Shown here one piece after another: positions 2,658 to 34,605 of a DNA stretch of 34,606 bases. Under the pieces are notes generated by a model. That model searched no databases, was not told the DNA's origin, and was given only the letters and a program-made list of their open reading frames with translations. Position 1 is the stretch's first letter. Each line of letters begins with the position of its first letter. Made by a program: the position numbers and the translations under genes. This DNA comes from a virus (lineage: Duplodnaviria; Caudoviricetes). The DNA lies in the IMG/VR virus record IMGVR_UViG_3300023263_000006, positions 1-34,606 of that record; one strand, given 5' to 3'.

Positions 2658-3326
2658 ATGTGTGATGAATATCATAAAATGAGATGCTGTTTACAAGGTC
2701 CGCAAGGCCCTGCAGGTCTACAAGGCCCTCAAGGTATACAGGGTGTTCCAGGTGCTCAAGGCATTCCTGGTCCCTCTGGTGCTCAAGGCCCTCAAGGCAT
2801 GCAAGGTGAACCTGGTAAAGATTGTGATTGCTCCGGTTCAAGCGCATTCTTACCATTTGCTAATCTATTCGCTTCTGTACCAGAAGTAATAGGTCCGTCA
2901 GGATCAGCAACAGACAAAGTTTTGTTTGATAAACAAAATGAAGTATCTGCTGGTGATTTTGATTTGACACAAGCAAATATATCAGGTGGTGTGCAATTTT
3001 TGAAACACGGCATCTACCGTATTTCTTGGCTTCTGCAAGCAAGAATAGTGCCCCCTGTTCCTGAACCAGTTCCTTCATGGAGCTTTGGTTTGTGGATGAA
3101 TGGTGTATTAGTTCCAGGCAGCATCTACTCAGGGTATACACAAGCCCCAGGTGATGATGCATGTCATAGTACAGGTGATGTGATTATAGAAGTTCAAGCG
3201 AACGATGTCTTAAAATTAAGAAATACTTCGGTGAGCGCTGTAAACCTTAATCCTGCTGTGACAGGTTCAATATTCCCGATTACAATAGCAAGTCTGAACA
3301 TAGTTTGTGTTCGTGCACTTGCCTAA
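2658..3326 (+). CDS. Collagen-like protein (14 Gly-X-Y triplets) with BclA/C1q-like C-terminal beta domain
   Basis: GPQGPAGLQ...GEPGKD flanked by CC and CDC; C-terminal GIYRISW...[11 protein letters not shown]...ASLNIV pattern typical of BclA-CTD/C1q folds. Confidence 0.85.
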
Positions 3327-10145: not shown

Positions 10146-10916
10146 ATGGCTATTTATAAATATGGTACCTTCAATGTGCCGACTGCTAAGGCAGCCTTAA
10201 ACTTAAATCTAGGGTTTGTGCCTAGTGAATTTCGCATGTGGAACCAAACAGTATTTAATACTGGTACTTTAACAGGTACTATTTCCGGATGGTGGAATGC
10301 AACAATGGGTGTTCAAGCTACTCCAATGAGTATGTTAGGCACCTGGACAGCTGGTGCTGAAGTTTGGAGCAGGTTAACTACGACTGGTATTCTTTCTTTC
10401 CAAAGTGATGATGCCAATCTGTTTACTCCTCAACAGGCTCCTTACACTACTATTGTTGGTAATAGACAATATATCCAAGAGTCTACAAACCTGGTAATTA
10501 CCGGGTTGTCTAATGCTGCAAATGCTTCAGTAACAGCTACTCATAGCTTTACTTCAGCAGACGTTGGAGTAACAGTTGTTACATTCCATGGCGTATTGGG
10601 CATGACTCAGATCAATGGTCTGTCAGGCATAGTACAATCTGTGACTAGCACAACATCCTTTACTGTAAATATCAATTCAACAAACTTTGGTGTTTATAGC
10701 GCGGGTGTAGCTGGTGTAACAGGTGGTTTTGCAAACGTCATCACTGGCGCTCCTGCAAATACACTTTACAGCAATGTATCGTTGCCAACAGCACAAGCAA
10801 ACCTAGGATTCATAGGTTTAACCATTGGTACTGGTATGTTCTCAGATGCATCAGTTACTGCTGGAGATCTGTATTCATACAGTGCTATCTTGCAGTCACC
10901 TGCAACTGGTCCGTAA
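10146..10916 (+). CDS. Virion structural/decoration protein with an E1-FCCH-like beta domain
   Basis: LNLGFVPSEF N-terminus; ITGLSNAANASVT..H...VTFHGVLGMTQING...SFTVNINSTNFGVY..G. Confidence 0.65.
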   Translation: MAIYKYGTFNVPTAKAALNLNLGFVPSEFRMWNQTVFNTGTLTGTISGWWNATMGVQATPMSMLGTWTAGAEVWSRLTTTGILSFQSDDANLFTPQQAPYTTIVGNRQYIQESTNLVITGLSNAANASVTATHSFTSADVGVTVVTFHGVLGMTQINGLSGIVQSVTSTTSFTVNINSTNFGVYSAGVAGVTGGFANVITGAPANTLYSNVSLPTAQANLGFIGLTIGTGMFSDASVTAGDLYSYSAILQSPATGP

Positions 10917-10948
10917 TAAAGGTCGCTGTACTTAAAACGTACAGAACC

Positions 10949-10977
10949 CCCGGGGTTTCGGCCCCGGGTCTACTTTT
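10949..10977 (+). terminator. Intrinsic terminator after head genes
   Basis: CCCGGGGT-TTCG-GCCCCGGG stem with UUCG loop, then TCTACTTTT. Confidence 0.75.
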
Positions 10978-10986
10978 GAGGAATAG

Positions 10987-11358
10987 ATGCCTAGAAACTT
11001 AGCTGGAGCAGGATTACCCGCAGGAAATGGTGGAGTAACATATCCAAGTCCTAATGAGTGGCCCACTACTGTTTATGCTGTAACCGGCATTACACAAAGT
11101 GGTAACCCTATCGTTACGGCTGCTAATCATGGCATTACGATATCTTCAACACAATCTACGCCGAGAGTCGATTTCTCTCAAGTTAGAGGCATGTATCAGA
11201 TCAACGGCCAATCTGCTTTCGTTACATCAGTAATAGACGCAAGCAACTTCACCATTGCTCTAGATACAAGTAAATATTCACCCTATACGAGTGGGGGCTT
11301 TGTCAATATATTGGTAAGCCCAGCACCTATAGACCCATTAACAAACACTTTTGCATGA
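10987..11358 (+). CDS. Small protein consisting mainly of an E1-FCCH-like domain
   Basis: VTGITQSGNPIVTAANHG...VDFSQVRGMYQING...NFTIALDTSKYSPYTSGG. Confidence 0.7.
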   Translation: MPRNLAGAGLPAGNGGVTYPSPNEWPTTVYAVTGITQSGNPIVTAANHGITISSTQSTPRVDFSQVRGMYQINGQSAFVTSVIDASNFTIALDTSKYSPYTSGGFVNILVSPAPIDPLTNTFA

Positions 11359-19909: not shown

Positions 19910-20172
19910 AATATTTTCTCCTTTTGTTTTTTGTCATATTCATCATTGAGTCTATCTTCTAAAGCTCTCATCGATGAGTAAGTTTTATCTTCTTCAGCAA
20001 TTTCAACATCAGGTCTTACTTTTTTTCTGACGATGTTTATCACCATGTTTCTTGAAATCTCAAACTCTTTTGCTATGTCATTATAATCGAATCGACCTCT
20101 CGGTGGTCCGCCTGGAAAGCACAGTCGTATGTATTTTATCTCATCGTCACTTAAGTCTTTTCTGTATTTCAT
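19906..20172 (-). CDS. Small HTH protein resembling the C-terminal HTH of the neighbouring HNH nuclease
   Basis: LSDDEIKYIR...YNDIAKEFEISRNMVINIVRKK versus LNEKQVLEIR...YKSLANMYGVAVSNIFSIIHRK; coupled start 20172. Confidence 0.7.
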   Translation of the reverse strand: MKYRKDLSDDEIKYIRLCFPGGPPRGRFDYNDIAKEFEISRNMVINIVRKKVRPDVEIAEEDKTYSSMRALEDRLNDEYDKKQKEKIL

Positions 20173-20837
20173 GGTATATGTTTCCATGTTTTTCTATGTA
20201 TAATAGAAAATATATTGCTCACTGCTACACCATACATATTAGCTAAAGATTTATAGCTTAACCCTTGAGATTTCTGTAGTCTAATTTCCAAAACCTGTTT
20301 TTCATTTAATTTGCATGAACCTTGCTTTTCTCCATTAACAAAAACCCCCCTCTTTTTTCTTAACATGTCTTCCATATTTTCTTTATATGTACCTAAAAAT
20401 AAATGATCTACATTTATACATTTTGGATTATCGCATTTGTGACATACCAGTTTACCTTTAGGGATTTCGCCTTTATATACCAGCCAAGAAGCTCTATGTG
20501 CTCTCATTTGCCTTCCCTTAAATCCAACGGCTCCATATCCAAAATGTTTAACGTAAAATCCTGTCCATTCTATGCACCCAGTTTCTATGTTTTTGCGAGA
20601 TTTTTGTTCTAAGTTTTTCTTAAGACGTAGTATTGCTTCCATGCCTTGTGGAGAGTTAATGCATCCACAACTTTTTGAAGTATTCCTTCTTAGTGAACTT
20701 CCACTGATAATTTTCTCTTTCCCACAATCGCATAGACATTTCCAATAAACCATTCCATGTGCAACATGAGACTTTTCTATAACTGTTAGTCGATTGAACT
20801 TTTTACCTTTGATGTCTATACATTTCCAAAAAACCAT
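20169..20837 (-). CDS. HNH homing endonuclease
   Basis: GKKFNRLTVI..WKCLCDCG..SCGC N-domain; VCHKCDNPKCINVDHLFLGTYKENMED HNH motif; C-terminal HTH. Confidence 0.9.
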   Translation of the reverse strand: MVFWKCIDIKGKKFNRLTVIEKSHVAHGMVYWKCLCDCGKEKIISGSSLRRNTSKSCGCINSPQGMEAILRLKKNLEQKSRKNIETGCIEWTGFYVKHFGYGAVGFKGRQMRAHRASWLVYKGEIPKGKLVCHKCDNPKCINVDHLFLGTYKENMEDMLRKKRGVFVNGEKQGSCKLNEKQVLEIRLQKSQGLSYKSLANMYGVAVSNIFSIIHRKTWKHIP

Positions 20838-26298: not shown

Positions 26299-27036
26299 AT
26301 GACTTCAGGAATTTATAAGATAAAAAGTTTGAAATGCGGAAAATGTTACTGGGGTTCTTCAAAGAACATATATAATAGATTTGCAACCCATAGGTATTGT
26401 CTAAATAAAAAAAAGCACGGAAATAAAACACTACAAAGTATTTATGATGAATATGGATTAGATAATCTACAATTTGAAATAGTTGAAGAATGTAGTTGTA
26501 ATGATTTAGAGCAACGTGAGAAGTATTATTTAGATAAGGATGAAAATAAAATAAATATATGGATAAATCCTTATTCTCCAAAGGGTTGTAAGCGAACAAA
26601 AAAACGAATTTGGTCACAAGAAGTAAAAGATAAGATTAGCAAAAGTGTTCGAGAAAGTCATTTAAAACATGGGCACCCATTGCTTGGGGTATCTATGAAA
26701 GAAGAGACGAAACGAAAAATAGGAAATGCCAACAGAGGCAATAAGTGGTCAGAAGAAAGTAAATTGAAGATCAAAGGAAGAGCATCTCCCAATAAGGGAA
26801 TTCCTCTTTCAGAAGAGACTAAATTAAAACTCAAGTTGGCAAACCTGGGGAAGCCCTGTAAACTTAAAGGTTTTGTAAAAGAGTTTCCTAAAGAGAAAGT
26901 TTGCATAAAATGTAAAGAGATGAAAAACATTCAAGCATATGGATTTTCAGGAAAATGGTATAGAAATATGTGTAGGAAATGCAAAGAACTACATAGAAAA
27001 CCTAGAAATAAAAGGAAGGTAAAACTTGGCTTATAA
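26299..27036 (+). CDS. Free-standing GIY-YIG homing endonuclease with NUMOD3-type repeats
   Basis: SGIYKI...YWGSSKNIYNRF..H...REKYY; SEETKRKIG/SEESKLKI/SEETKLKL repeats; C-terminal CxxC...CxxC; AT-rich relative to flanks. Confidence 0.9.
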   Translation: MTSGIYKIKSLKCGKCYWGSSKNIYNRFATHRYCLNKKKHGNKTLQSIYDEYGLDNLQFEIVEECSCNDLEQREKYYLDKDENKINIWINPYSPKGCKRTKKRIWSQEVKDKISKSVRESHLKHGHPLLGVSMKEETKRKIGNANRGNKWSEESKLKIKGRASPNKGIPLSEETKLKLKLANLGKPCKLKGFVKEFPKEKVCIKCKEMKNIQAYGFSGKWYRNMCRKCKELHRKPRNKRKVKLGL

Positions 27037-29431: not shown

Positions 29432-30838
29432 TTAAGATAAATCGCTTTCTTCTTCTTCTCTAATTGGTTTATGTTCATTAAAATCCATTGATTTAAATCT
29501 TGAAAATTGAAGTTCTGTGGCAAGAAATAATGTTCCTGTTGATCCATGCCGATTTTTTTCTACTACAACACTTATCCTACCGGCGCCATCATTTGGATTG
29601 GTCATAGAAGGCCGATGCAAAAAGATTACCTGATCGGCGTCTTGCTCAATCGATCCCGACTCTCTAAGATCAGATAATTTTGGTTTACTATCTAATCGAT
29701 TTTCTACGCTACGATTTAATTGAGATAAACAAACGATCGGAATATCGAGCTCCATAGCCAATAGTTTAAGCTTTCTCGAGATGTCTGATACTTCATTGAC
29801 TCGACTATCACTATTTTTGTATTTGGCAGATCCGTTTATAAGTTGCAGATAATCAATGATTAACAGTTCTATTTTATGAACCTCTTTTAGCTTTTTTGCA
29901 GCAATCTTGATAGAAGAGATATCTACGCTGTGCGATGTGTAAAAGTGTATTGGTGCATCTTTAATTTTTTCAATCGTATCAGTAAGGTCAACCCAAAACT
30001 GATCTAGATGCCCTTTGTGAATCGCTTCTAAAGGAATTTTACCAACATTAGAGCAAATCTTTTCTATGATTTGTTGAGGGTCCATCTCAAGAGAAAATAT
30101 TCCTACAGGTTTATTTTTCCGAATGGCCTGCTCAATTGCGAATTCAATAGCAAGAGTTGTTTTACCGACCCCAGGTCTTGCCGCAACTATAATAAGATTT
30201 TTTTTCCCCAATCCATTTATTTGTTCATCAAGCTTCGGAAATCCAGTAGTAAGGCCCAAGCAATTCCCAAGCCCGGCTTGTTTTCGTTCTTCTTGTCTTT
30301 GCTGCATAAGCTCTAAAAAGCTTTCTGGTTGCTTTTCAGTTTTCCCTTCACATACTTGTTTGACATTAGTAAACTCATTAAATGATTTCTTTTTACCAAG
30401 ATTGTGCAACTCAGTACTTATCGAAGCTATGTGAATTTCCACAGGTTCTTGATTTTCAAGAACTTCTCTCGCCGATCGCTGGTGAAGATTGATAAGATCT
30501 CTTCTAATTGATTTGTCTAAAATTATATTTGTATACTCTTCCGAATCATAGGCAATGAGAGCAGCTTCTTTGCAGGTCATCAAGTAGGCTATGCCACCGG
30601 CCCTAGAAAGCTCTCCAGTCGCTCGTAATGACTCGACCAGTATCTGTAGTTCACCTGGCGTGTTTTTCTCGTAGAGGGCCTGCAAATGCGAAAAAACAAT
30701 AACATGCTTTTCTTCTAGAAAATCCTGCGGACACAATCTTTGACAAGCGAGGTCATTATCGCTTGCAGAAGAGAGCATCATCCCTAAGAGAATTGTTTCG
30801 GATTCAACCGCGTTTGGTAATTCTTGATATTTTTTCAT
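29432..30838 (-). CDS. dnaB: Replicative DNA helicase DnaB
   Basis: AARPGVGKT Walker A, FSLEM, IIDYLQL, LSQLNR, DLRESGSIEQDAD, KNRHG; full N-terminal domain. Confidence 0.97.
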   Translation of the reverse strand: MKKYQELPNAVESETILLGMMLSSASDNDLACQRLCPQDFLEEKHVIVFSHLQALYEKNTPGELQILVESLRATGELSRAGGIAYLMTCKEAALIAYDSEEYTNIILDKSIRRDLINLHQRSAREVLENQEPVEIHIASISTELHNLGKKKSFNEFTNVKQVCEGKTEKQPESFLELMQQRQEERKQAGLGNCLGLTTGFPKLDEQINGLGKKNLIIVAARPGVGKTTLAIEFAIEQAIRKNKPVGIFSLEMDPQQIIEKICSNVGKIPLEAIHKGHLDQFWVDLTDTIEKIKDAPIHFYTSHSVDISSIKIAAKKLKEVHKIELLIIDYLQLINGSAKYKNSDSRVNEVSDISRKLKLLAMELDIPIVCLSQLNRSVENRLDSKPKLSDLRESGSIEQDADQVIFLHRPSMTNPNDGAGRISVVVEKNRHGSTGTLFLATELQFSRFKSMDFNEHKPIREEEESDLS

Positions 30839-31682
30839 TTAACATCCTTATACATTCATTAAAGGTTTTTTCAAATAAGGCATCTGATTTGAAACTATGG
30901 TACTCCTTACCGTCGAAAATCACAAGCAAATCATCGTTCGTGTCACTGCAATAAACTTTAGCAATACCGCATAGTTCAATTATTTCATCTATCATAGGTT
31001 TCTTGTTATCAACTTTGTTTTTTAACCGGCCCCACCTTTCGTAGGGTTTTCTTTCTTGCTCCTGAGTTGGTTGATCTTGTCTAGAGAGGTATTCTTTGCA
31101 TAGGTTTGTGAATACCGCTACTGGCTTCTTTGGTGTTATGGGCATTCGGCTTATGCATCGCTTCGCGTAAGCTACAGCCTCTTTAGGGTAACGGCTTAGG
31201 ATTTGCTTGTCTTTGACTCCGAAAGGTAGGGCTTCGATGTCAGGTCTCATCGATGGAGTTTGTTTGGTTTCTTTTGGCTGATTCGAAGAATCTGCTTCGA
31301 ATTCGTATTTATTTAGTTTGTTTTCTTTTGTGGGGGTGATTTTCACCCTGGGGGCAGGGTGATTTTCACCCTGGTCATTATTATTTGAAACAACGAGTTC
31401 ATAAACTGTAGCCTCTTGGCCATTTGTGCCTGCAACATATTTTTTGCATAAGCCTAATTGTTCTAGTTTTTCCGTAGCTTTCCATAAAGCTTGGCGGTTC
31501 ACACCTGTCATTTTCTCCATTTGAGATATGCTAATACGATCTCGAAAATTTTCTTTATGGAAACCAAAGATTTTTCTACAAAGTGCACAAAGTACTTTGA
31601 ATTCAGTACCATTAAGACGACTCATCCAATAATCAAAAATGACGTTTGGGCTTTGAGTATAATTTGGGATTGGAATAGACAC
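30804..31682 (-). CDS. Replication initiator, lambda O-like N-terminal wHTH
   Basis: NYTQSPNVIFD...LNGTEFKVL..LCRKIFGFHK..DRISISQMEKMTG; directly upstream of dnaB; internal iterons. Confidence 0.85.
   Translation of the reverse strand: MSIPIPNYTQSPNVIFDYWMSRLNGTEFKVLCALCRKIFGFHKENFRDRISISQMEKMTGVNRQALWKATEKLEQLGLCKKYVAGTNGQEATVYELVVSNNNDQGENHPAPRVKITPTKENKLNKYEFEADSSNQPKETKQTPSMRPDIEALPFGVKDKQILSRYPKEAVAYAKRCISRMPITPKKPVAVFTNLCKEYLSRQDQPTQEQERKPYERWGRLKNKVDNKKPMIDEIIELCGIAKVYCSDTNDDLLVIFDGKEYHSFKSDALFEKTFNECIRMLNEKISRITKRG
31311..31374. repeat. Putative replication origin: two palindromic iterons plus an AT-rich tract
   Basis: GGGTGATTTTCACCCTGG at 31334-31351 and 31357-31374; T-rich 31311-31330. 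Confidence 0.75.
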
Positions 31683-31693
31683 ATTAATTCTAC

Positions 31694-31762
31694 CTATGCG
31701 AGTTCTTATGTTGAGAAGAAAACCAACGTGTGCTAAGATCTCGCATAGATCACACGTTGGTT
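31694..31762 (-). promoter_or_regulatory. Alternative-pairing leader of the initiator mRNA
   Basis: IR1 31694-31708/31734-31748 (14/15), IR2 31721-31732/31751-31762 (12/12), interleaved; IR1 overlaps the SD. Confidence 0.7.
31711..31739 (+). promoter_or_regulatory. Antisense promoter within the initiator leader
   Basis: TTGAGA-17-TAAGAT with extended -10 TG. Confidence 0.7.
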
Positions 31763-31810
31763 GGTTAAGGGTCGCGAATTCTTTGGTTGGAAGCGCGGCC
31801 CTTTGGTTTT
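31746..31810 (+). ncRNA. Putative ~65-nt countertranscript (antisense) RNA
   Basis: Between the antisense promoter and hairpin AAGGGTCGCG/CGCGGCCCTT (31767-31803; fully paired only on + via G-U) followed by TGGTTTT; no ORF. Confidence 0.6.
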
Positions 31811-31890
31811 AGTACGATACTCTTCACAAGCCTTTTTGTCTCTACAAAAATTCTCGCTCTGTGTACGCTAAAAGTTAAAATAGGCATATC

Positions 31891-32304
31891 ATGGAATGGC
31901 AAATTTTAACTACGTTTTTTTCTCTAATGTCACTAGTTCTTCTGGTTGTGATACTTATGGCACAAGCATTCATAAAGCGATCGCAAACTTCTATGTCTAA
32001 GGTACTTGTAGAACTTCTTTCGGATTCTCATTCGCTCTTATCCATTGTGCGTGAGATGGATAAGCAACAGGACCTCTTTGTTAGACAGATGCCTCCTCAT
32101 GAAGAAAGTGCCGTTGTTGTGCATCCTATGGACACAAAAGACCTTCCAGCTGGCCTTGTGTGGATGTCTACAGTAGAAGCTGTGACTCCAGAGATCATTC
32201 CAGCTGAAAGAAAGGCCACATCTCCGAAGAAACATGGCCGTAGTCGAGGTTCTAGAGGCGCTGTGTCTAAACAACGAAAGGTCAAAGCGAAGAAATCGGA
32301 ATAG
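31891..32304 (+). CDS. N-terminally membrane-anchored protein with basic tail, inverted within the early arm
   Basis: TM ILTTFFSLMSLVLLVVILMA; possible promoter TCTACA-17-TACGCT 31841-31869. Confidence 0.65.
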   Translation: MEWQILTTFFSLMSLVLLVVILMAQAFIKRSQTSMSKVLVELLSDSHSLLSIVREMDKQQDLFVRQMPPHEESAVVVHPMDTKDLPAGLVWMSTVEAVTPEIIPAERKATSPKKHGRSRGSRGAVSKQRKVKAKKSE

Positions 32305-32950
32305 ACTCCCCTGTATCATCAATTGGAAAACGCTTCTCATAGGCCTTAGCAAACCTTGATAAGTTGTTATCCTGGTTAGCAATTGCAGATTTCAGGATGT
32401 TAAACTCTGACGTCTTGTGCTCAATGCTCTTTTCCTTTACAAAAACGACCAAGGAAGCGCGATCGGCTATAACCCCTATCGTAGTCAGCTTTTCCATAAG
32501 ATCGTCGATTGTGAACGATTCTGGCGCGTTTTGAGTAGGCTTAGCTTCCTTAGGCCTTCTATCCACGCAACTTTCGGCATCATCATCCGCTTGGGCAACA
32601 CCAACAAGGGCCGCATAGCTATAGCGTCTAAAGTACGTCAGTGCGCTTCCAATGCTTTGAGGATCTTGCTTAGCCAAAACGATAGGCATTACGGACTTAA
32701 TCCACTGACCTGACTTATGCGCTAAAGTGCTTATTAAGCAAAGCTGAGCGTCTATTATGCCCGTAGTCTGTATGACTGCTAGGCCATTATTCGCAAGAGG
32801 CTCTTTTGCAGCATTTAAAATACTGTGCAGATCTGCGTAGGAGCTCTTGAAGAACGGGTTCTTGCTGTCCTTTATGGCGGGCATTAGACAGCCCTGGGTT
32901 TTTGATAAGGCTTCAGCCAGTTCGTTAATTTCTTGAGATTGCATATCCAT
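32282..32950 (-). CDS. erf: ERF-family ssDNA annealing recombinase
   Basis: INELAEALSKTQ...KDSKNPFFKSSYADL...GSALTYFRRYS...DDDA; start at ATG 32950. Confidence 0.9.
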   Translation of the reverse strand: MDMQSQEINELAEALSKTQGCLMPAIKDSKNPFFKSSYADLHSILNAAKEPLANNGLAVIQTTGIIDAQLCLISTLAHKSGQWIKSVMPIVLAKQDPQSIGSALTYFRRYSYAALVGVAQADDDAESCVDRRPKEAKPTQNAPESFTIDDLMEKLTTIGVIADRASLVVFVKEKSIEHKTSEFNILKSAIANQDNNLSRFAKAYEKRFPIDDTGESIPISSL

Positions 32951-34305: not shown

Positions 34306-34605
34306 ATGAATCTTAGGGAATGGTTAGATTCGGAATGCGTTGAAATTAAGCAACTTGCAGGCAAACTAGGAGTTAACAGAAAAACGCTATATAATTGGAT
34401 GACCCGTGGTGTTGTACCCCTTAGGATACATCGTGCGTTGATTCAGAGAGTTACAAAAGGACAAGTGAAAATAGGAGATTGGGAGGATGGAGAACAAATT
34501 GCTGCTAAACGCCTACGAGGCCGCAGAAAGAATGAAGTGCGGAGTCAGAAACGTTTGGTTACAGATGAGGCGATTAAGCCTAAAGTCGATAAAAAGGGAC
34601 GGTAA
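34306..34605 (+). CDS. Cro-like HTH transcriptional regulator (3' end runs off the window)
   Basis: MNLREWL...IKQLAGKLGVNRKTLYNW...P...I..VTKGQV; AAGGT RBS. Confidence 0.8.
   Translation: MNLREWLDSECVEIKQLAGKLGVNRKTLYNWMTRGVVPLRIHRALIQRVTKGQVKIGDWEDGEQIAAKRLRGRRKNEVRSQKRLVTDEAIKPKVDKKGR

Follow-up and report, generated by a model that had tools for sequence, protein, structure and literature searches.

A putative antisense RNA-controlled translational switch upstream of a lambda-O-like initiator gene in tailed phages that probably infect chlamydiae

RESULTS

Genetic context of the initiator gene

The window, that is, the whole 34,606-nucleotide stretch of DNA analyzed here, corresponds to the complete record (G000) of a 34.6-kb virus contig with an estimated completeness of 90%. 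Its gene content includes a P22-like portal, capsid, Erf, an exonuclease, a lambda-O-like replication initiator, DnaB and, at the right end, a Cro/CI-like helix-turn-helix (HTH) protein. A terminal repeat is absent from the contig, and no terminase was recognized in the window by family searches. A collagen/BclA-like protein, two virion proteins with E1_FCCH-like matches, and HNH and GIY-YIG homing endonucleases are encoded elsewhere in the window (2658-3326, 10146-11358, 20169-20837, and 26299-27036).

The initiator is a 292-amino-acid protein encoded on the minus strand (30804-31682), residues 8 to 77 of which match Pfam Phage_rep_O (E = 4.7e-8; PHROG 678); this was its only match, and none to RepA_N was found. 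Its start agrees with that of the homologs P0002 and P0004, which begin at the same residue, and the same O is also present on a 39.6-kb contig. DnaB helicase, identified by family match, comes next after O on the minus strand (29432-30838) and overlaps the end of the initiator gene, suggesting that the two share an operon. Two identical 18-bp palindromic repeats lie 23 bp apart within O (31334-31374) and are the sole two matches in the window, with 0.04 expected; they are candidate iterons or a candidate origin, placed inside O as in lambda.

Divergently from the initiator and downstream of the antisense terminator described below, a 137-amino-acid ORF with a hydrophobic N terminus (31891-32304, plus strand) has its own candidate promoter at 31823-31851; no family or homolog was found for it, and its Atlas scores were below 0.9. 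It is a candidate superinfection-exclusion or regulator gene. A terminator-like hairpin (32214-32239, minus strand) follows the Erf gene and would shield the initiator leader from transcripts entering from upstream. No cII-like arrangement was found, as no same-strand gene of at least 60 amino acids ends within about 350 nt. A preliminary description of this locus had reported neither CI nor integrase in view. Indeed, no integrase was recognized in this record of about 90% completeness, but the statement on CI was too strong, as the segment at about 34306-34605 encodes an HTH that weakly matches Phage_CI_repr. It had proposed looking for par genes in the rest of the genome; no ParA was recognized in the window.

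Elements of the initiator leader

The ribosome site of the initiator comprises a Shine-Dalgarno (SD) sequence, AGGTAG (31695-31690), and a GTG start codon at 31682 (together 31680-31695, minus strand). A candidate promoter for the initiator mRNA, GAGACA (31842-31837) and TATCGT (31819-31814) with a 17-bp spacer, lies on the minus strand at 31814-31842, with a predicted start at about 31807. Facing it on the plus strand is an antisense promoter at 31711-31739, which combines TTGAGA (31711-31716) and, after 17 bp, the extended element TGcTAAGAT (TAAGAT at 31734-31739). Both had been described previously, and using z-scores that rest on weights of our own choosing, the antisense promoter was found by the promoter scan with a z of 3.3 against shuffles of its stretch, whereas the mRNA promoter, although present at its place, was missed by the consensus scan, the best score around it being unremarkable (z of 0.9 against shuffles). 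A -10-like element just 5' of the hairpin described below recurs weakly in relatives (z above 0 in 17 of 26; P = 0.027).

The antisense promoter and a downstream terminator would delimit an RNA of approximately 65 nt (31747-31811, plus strand), with a predicted fold of -23.7 kcal/mol (z = -3.25). It is laid out as a weakly folded 5' part, complementary to the 5' arm of inverted repeat IR2, followed by the terminator hairpin. This intrinsic-terminator-like hairpin with its interrupted U tail occupies 31767-31810; the hairpin itself (31767-31803) has a predicted stability of -20.5 kcal/mol on the plus strand versus -13.3 kcal/mol on the minus strand, a difference of 7 kcal/mol due to a G-U pair that is a mismatch on the minus strand, and is followed by TGGTTTT (31804-31810). 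The earlier observation that it is fully paired only on the plus strand therefore holds. So does the presence of the YUNR-like UUGG in its loop. YUNR is a U-turn motif of antisense-recognition loops; the hairpin loops of relatives vary freely, and no support was obtained for a role of the motif here. Searches of 31500-32400 with Rfam 15 covariance models identified no family, giving only three chance matches (E = 2.6 to 7).

Within the mRNA leader, the two interleaved inverted repeats of the preliminary description were located on the minus strand with the matches it gave. IR2 (31721-31762; arms 31762-31751 and 31732-31721; 12/12 bp, 100%; -18.9 kcal/mol) is the predicted pre-emptor stem of the ON state, and IR1 (31694-31748; arms 31748-31734 and 31708-31694; 14/15 bp, 93%) is the stem predicted to close the ribosome site in the OFF state. 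The two are mutually exclusive, as the 5' arm of IR1 lies in the loop of IR2 and the 3' arm of IR2 in the loop of IR1. The -10 element of the antisense promoter also overlaps an arm of IR1. The stated overlap of IR1 with the SD was confirmed in part: IR1 proper covers just 2 nt of the SD, and a G-U extension covers the remainder. The partner bases of this extension (31750-31747) would be taken by a full antisense duplex. On the mRNA, IR2 is followed by UUUUCUUCU and thus also resembles a terminator, and IR1 is followed by GUAGAAUUAAU, in which a U run is absent.

Predicted folding of the leader with and without the antisense RNA

The mRNA leader folds far better than shuffled sequences (z of -3.5 to -5.3). 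In stepwise folding IR2 closes first and buries an arm of IR1, as had been proposed, and at equilibrium its probability is 0.81 to 0.83, or about 82% of the ensemble; the computed barrier on the direct path from IR2 to IR1 is about 21 kcal/mol. Folding with and without the antisense RNA predicted that the cost of opening the ribosome site (-16 to +3) would rise from 3.8 kcal/mol in the free leader to between 6.8 and 13.2 kcal/mol with the antisense duplex, depending on the 5' end of the duplex. For the SD alone, a full duplex from 31747 would raise the cost only from 1.5 to 2.3 kcal/mol, since the four bases pairing over the SD would then be bound by the antisense RNA.

Recurrence of the layout at O-family initiators

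Four scans identified 149 O loci, including the window, with the metagenome scan represented by the best 80 of 253. Of these loci, 131 had 230 nt of upstream sequence, giving 106 distinct leaders, 83 of which were noncoding. A strict antisense-strand terminator at -200 to -80 was present in 28 of the 83 noncoding leaders and lacking in 55, compared with 5 of 146 leaders of other genes from the same loci (Fisher P = 7e-10) and 4 of 166 shuffles (P = 1e-11). Strict terminators on the sense strand were found in 4/83 O leaders and 6/146 controls.

The set used for the switch test contained 31 leaders (34 strict matches among the 106, minus 4 that were bidirectional, plus L001, which was added by hand from a loose scan). 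Antisense promoter scores exceeded those of shuffles (z above 0) in 23 of the 31 (P = 1.5e-4), and the median predicted antisense RNA was 73 nt. When the target of this RNA was blocked, the predicted opening cost rose by at least 2 kcal/mol in 20 of the 31 leaders and fell by that much in one, with a median switch of 3.7 kcal/mol versus 0.5 with the 5' part shuffled; 11 of the 31 show no off-switch.

The closest relative of the window, L001 in G002, has an O that is 39% identical and a capsid that is 85% identical. Its parts are in the same order as in the window (recombinase, divergent ORF, one-strand hairpin, pre-emptor stem, anti-SD stem, and O), with a leader sequence that differs and a predicted switch of 4.7 kcal/mol. 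The L001 hairpin has the same strand asymmetry, being paired only on the antisense strand, with compensatory changes. A tree of O (quick method, 105 columns) was poorly resolved; switch-bearing leaders are scattered in it, and no order of events is claimed.

Recurrence and variability among capsid relatives

A search with the capsid identified 132 relatives, of which the best 80 were kept. A genome-wide scan was performed on 43 related records, comprising 39 capsid relatives read whole or in large part together with G002, G010, G196, and G046. It returned 62 leader-terminator pairs, and all nine with a predicted switch of at least 5 kcal/mol were at initiator genes (two of the nine leaders are identical, and one gene was assigned by eye). 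A switch of at least 2 kcal/mol was predicted for 12 of 19 initiator leaders versus 3 of 43 others; the initiators of G478 and G196 scored in reverse. In the main initiator cluster, the antisense terminator was present in 15 of 29 genomes.

The N-terminal domains of the initiators differ among relatives, being O, HTH_36, or unassigned, and sequence comparison indicates that members of this phage family have exchanged the DNA-binding domain. P0003 and P0005 share the C-terminal half of the window O and have another N-terminal domain; no viral loci were found with P0005 as a query.

In an alignment of 21 leaders, including two (G465 and G477) that were probably cut at a wrong start, the antisense -10 element was the best-conserved column block, with the complement of the -35 element about 17 to 18 nt farther on. 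RNAalifold found no consensus structure in the leader alignment of 10 relatives. A long-range helix between the target and the anti-SD segment showed two-sided changes in 7 of 10 pairs in these relatives, a descriptive count, as the helix was read off the same 10 rows and a +1 slide scores equally, the rows being out of register. A sequence-only profile of the ten leaders did not detect the leader of the window (E = 9.3); it matched three other initiator leaders among 78 loci and gave one weak match in 151 Chlamydiota genomes. The topology also differs: in many relatives the 5' arm of the hairpin itself is the pre-emptor, whereas the window and L001 have their pre-emptor 3' of the hairpin. Thus, as the leaders are hypervariable, yield no RNAalifold consensus, and escape a common profile, they appear to share a design tied to the initiator locus rather than to form one RNA sequence family.

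Several other features were observed at these loci. A small divergent gene of no known family (cluster 24; e.g., L300:2279-2692) separates the initiator leader from the recombinase gene in 16 relatives; the divergent ORFs of the window and G002 have hydrophobic N termini and are dissimilar to it. In G046:C1 (L187:10244-11900), the cassette is located 5' of an ORF of approximately 116 amino acids that overlaps the start of O and would therefore control the first gene of the operon rather than O directly. In cluster 36 (e.g., L314:3311-3667), from the sister group, the gene precedes a short DnaB-like helicase, and an antisense-strand terminator was found in the leader in 8 of 13 cases, mostly with no predicted switch.

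Likely host

Homologs of the capsid, with 27 to 88% identity, were found in 8 of 401 Chlamydiota genomes, and homologs of O in 7 of 400; the search took in this one phylum, and assembled bins can misassign contigs. Two homologs are inside chromosome-sized contigs among host genes (G218 and G332). With named phages, capsid identity reaches only about 27 to 32%. The phage DnaB gave higher scores with four chlamydial genomes than with the one nonchlamydial genome compared. Among named plasmids and phages, O had only distant Acinetobacter matches, and three alternative initiators gave partial, distant matches to plasmids, with no chlamydial plasmid among the matches listed. The comparisons with Chlamydiota genomes make an environmental chlamydia the likely, though not proven, host.

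DISCUSSION

The leader of the initiator gene most likely acts as a translational attenuator of the pSK41 type, driven by a countertranscript. The backward-facing promoter and terminator in the O leader would make an antisense RNA of approximately 65 nt. In its absence, the nascent mRNA is predicted to close IR2 first, leaving the ribosome site open. When present, the RNA would anneal to the 5' region of the leader and thereby sequester the 5' arm of IR2; with this arm blocked, IR1 would form over the ribosome site and initiator translation would fall, so that O, and probably the coupled DnaB, would not be made. The genomes themselves contain the repeats and motifs and show that these recur at initiator genes; the two folds and the switch between them are computed. 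The preliminary proposal that the antisense RNA frees IR1 and shuts off initiator translation thus gains support from folding and from the recurrence of the layout at the initiators of relatives. The likely purpose would be to restrain initiation in a chlamydial host in a dose-sensing and phage-specific manner; such a brake may hold a nonintegrated genome at low copy or may set the timing of lytic replication and prevent superinfection.

Regulation of the initiator by a countertranscript is a plasmid hallmark, and lambdoid O genes are normally controlled by CI and Cro. Most likely, a known plasmid mechanism is used here in an undescribed phage family. RNAI of pSK41 is approximately 83 nt and complementary to the rep leader some 100 nt ahead of the start, and its binding is proposed to mask the ribosome site through an induced stem-loop, with no transcription termination (PMC5703833). 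It is the closest match, as an antisense promoter and terminator lie inside the leader and face the initiator promoter (in the window, as sequence motifs), and upstream binding induces a stem over the ribosome site (in the window by computation only, and weakly for the SD alone). However, pSK41 is one of the staphylococcal RepA_N plasmids, whereas the initiators described here are lambda-O-like or HTH_36 proteins of P22-like tailed phages with their own DnaB and a likely chlamydial host; the RNA of the window is also approximately 65 nt with one strong hairpin and no Rfam match. RNAI of pT181 and the ctRNA of repABC similarly switch between pre-emptor and attenuator stems by a countertranscript of approximately 60 to 90 nt. 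They match less well because their induced stem terminates transcription (PMC5703833, PMC3155836), whereas IR1 lacks a U tail; the window also has no RepA/RepB partition operon.

In lambda, OOP is a self-terminating 77-nt antisense RNA made just 5' of O (tO-oop-pO), which overlaps the 3' end of cII and acts against CII on the long transcript from pR (PMC3349717). The window likewise has a self-terminating antisense RNA predicted just upstream of a phage O gene, but lacks cII; its leader has a promoter of its own behind an upstream terminator, the predicted target is the ribosome site of the initiator itself, and O is followed by DnaB, not by P as in the cII-oop-O-P order. Genes of phage origin are present on chlamydial plasmids, as are antisense RNAs within pgp5 and pgp7/8, which that work does not describe as initiator leaders (PMC7846284), and viruses predicted to infect Chlamydiales have been mentioned as unclassified (PMC12644861). 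In the open-access literature, no account of such a phage family, or of such a switch in O-type or chlamydial phages, was found.

A real antisense RNA might instead act like OOP, through duplex formation and RNase III decay, or by promoter collision, with refolding of IR1 and IR2 being secondary. There is precedent in lambda (PMC3349717), the facing promoters are about 75 nt apart, about a third of terminator-bearing leaders have no predicted switch, and the ribosome-site hairpin of G332 is unchanged with or without the 5' part. Against this, the predicted switch exceeds that of shuffled controls, switches of at least 5 kcal/mol are confined to initiators, and long-range anti-SD helices are not required for either decay or interference; we consider this explanation rather unlikely. 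Control could also be transcriptional, with IR2 and UUUUCUUCU forming an intrinsic terminator that the antisense RNA would antagonize, thereby activating the gene, or with the antisense RNA inducing termination as in pT181 and repABC. IR2 (-18.9 kcal/mol) is indeed followed by 7 U in 9 nt, and a loose scan found sense-strand terminators in 18/83 O leaders versus 18/146 controls and 10/166 shuffles. That difference disappeared in the strict scan (4/83 versus 6/146), the pre-emptor stem of L001 is not followed by a U tract, the U run of the window is the complement of the spacer of the antisense promoter, and IR1 has no U tail, all of which make transcriptional control very unlikely.

It is highly improbable that the plus-strand promoter serves the divergent 137-amino-acid gene through a leaky hairpin, with IR1 and IR2 forming a self-timing leader that involves no antisense RNA. 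The U tail is interrupted (TTTGGTTTT) and a divergent ORF is found at this position in 16 relatives as well as in the window and G002, but past the hairpin the ORF of the window is served by a candidate promoter of its own, and the cassette also occurs where another gene is upstream, e.g., portal in the sister group. Finally, consensus promoter matches occur here at near-chance frequency (4 found versus 2.7 expected), as would suit an AT-rich intergenic stretch holding chance repeats and promoter look-alikes. With fold z-scores down to -5.3, an enrichment P of about 1e-9, and specificity for one kind of gene, such an origin is scarcely credible and is already largely refuted by the comparative counts.

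A pSK41-type attenuator would mean that a lambda-O-like replicon carries a plasmid-type RNA brake, as it appears to do across tailed phages probably infecting chlamydiae. If true, this would explain how phages lacking an integrase might remain in an obligate intracellular host or adjust the timing of their replication to it, and it would provide both a naturally diversified set of orthogonal translational repressors of approximately 65 nt and a compact candidate replicon for environmental chlamydiae (leader, O, internal repeats, and DnaB). The switch is 160 nt long and could be tested in Escherichia coli or in vitro without phage culture.

The preliminary description had further proposed maintenance as a copy-number-controlled phage-plasmid. 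Consistent with this, integrase was absent from 19 of 20 records of the group, as a tyrosine recombinase over the cutoff was found in only one of the 20 near-complete close relatives (capsid at least about 80% identical); the serine recombinase domain PF07508 was found in 0 of 18 close relatives, and PF00239 in neither G002 nor G010. However, ParA was absent from the window and its 20 close relatives, and the window encodes a Cro/CI-like HTH. Although HTH regulators do occur, a search of 20 complete O-family records for a cleavable CI domain was negative. An integrated relative, in G332, keeps the antisense promoter and terminator before an HTH_36 initiator, with no predicted switch, as the same ribosome-site hairpin folds with or without the 5' part; this copy appears to count against a pure plasmid reading. 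Plasmid-like copy control is thus a possible role of the switch, with somewhat less than an even chance, and timing of lytic replication or immunity is about equally possible. It is more doubtful that these represent a large uncultured family of P22-like phages of Chlamydiota, of approximately 35 to 42 kb, that persist within their intracellular hosts as partition-free, integrase-free plasmids, in which a hypervariable antisense switch would set copy number and incompatibility or immunity and would stay with the locus while the DNA-binding domain of the initiator is swapped.

In the sister group (G459 to G485; capsid 71 to 76% identical), a XerC/D-like recombinase was found in 12 of 13 records and ParA in 4 of 13. 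Five of its initiators carry the antisense terminator, and the initiator gene stands alone on the opposite strand between the portal and large terminase genes (e.g., L335:2213-3115 and L323:2618-3286). Judged by this plasmid-like gene set, these are candidate chlamydial phage-plasmids. A dif-like motif matched 5 of 353 loci, a set that excludes the window, with no pattern. The related prophage in G332:C1 (about 45000-79000; L191 and L192) lies among host genes and has Panacea-domain antitoxin-like genes beside its initiator; no integrase was detected on that contig. Several related phages also carry RtcB and RNA ligase genes (L294:6307-7476 and L298:18650-19330), which suggests an RNA-repair counterdefense.
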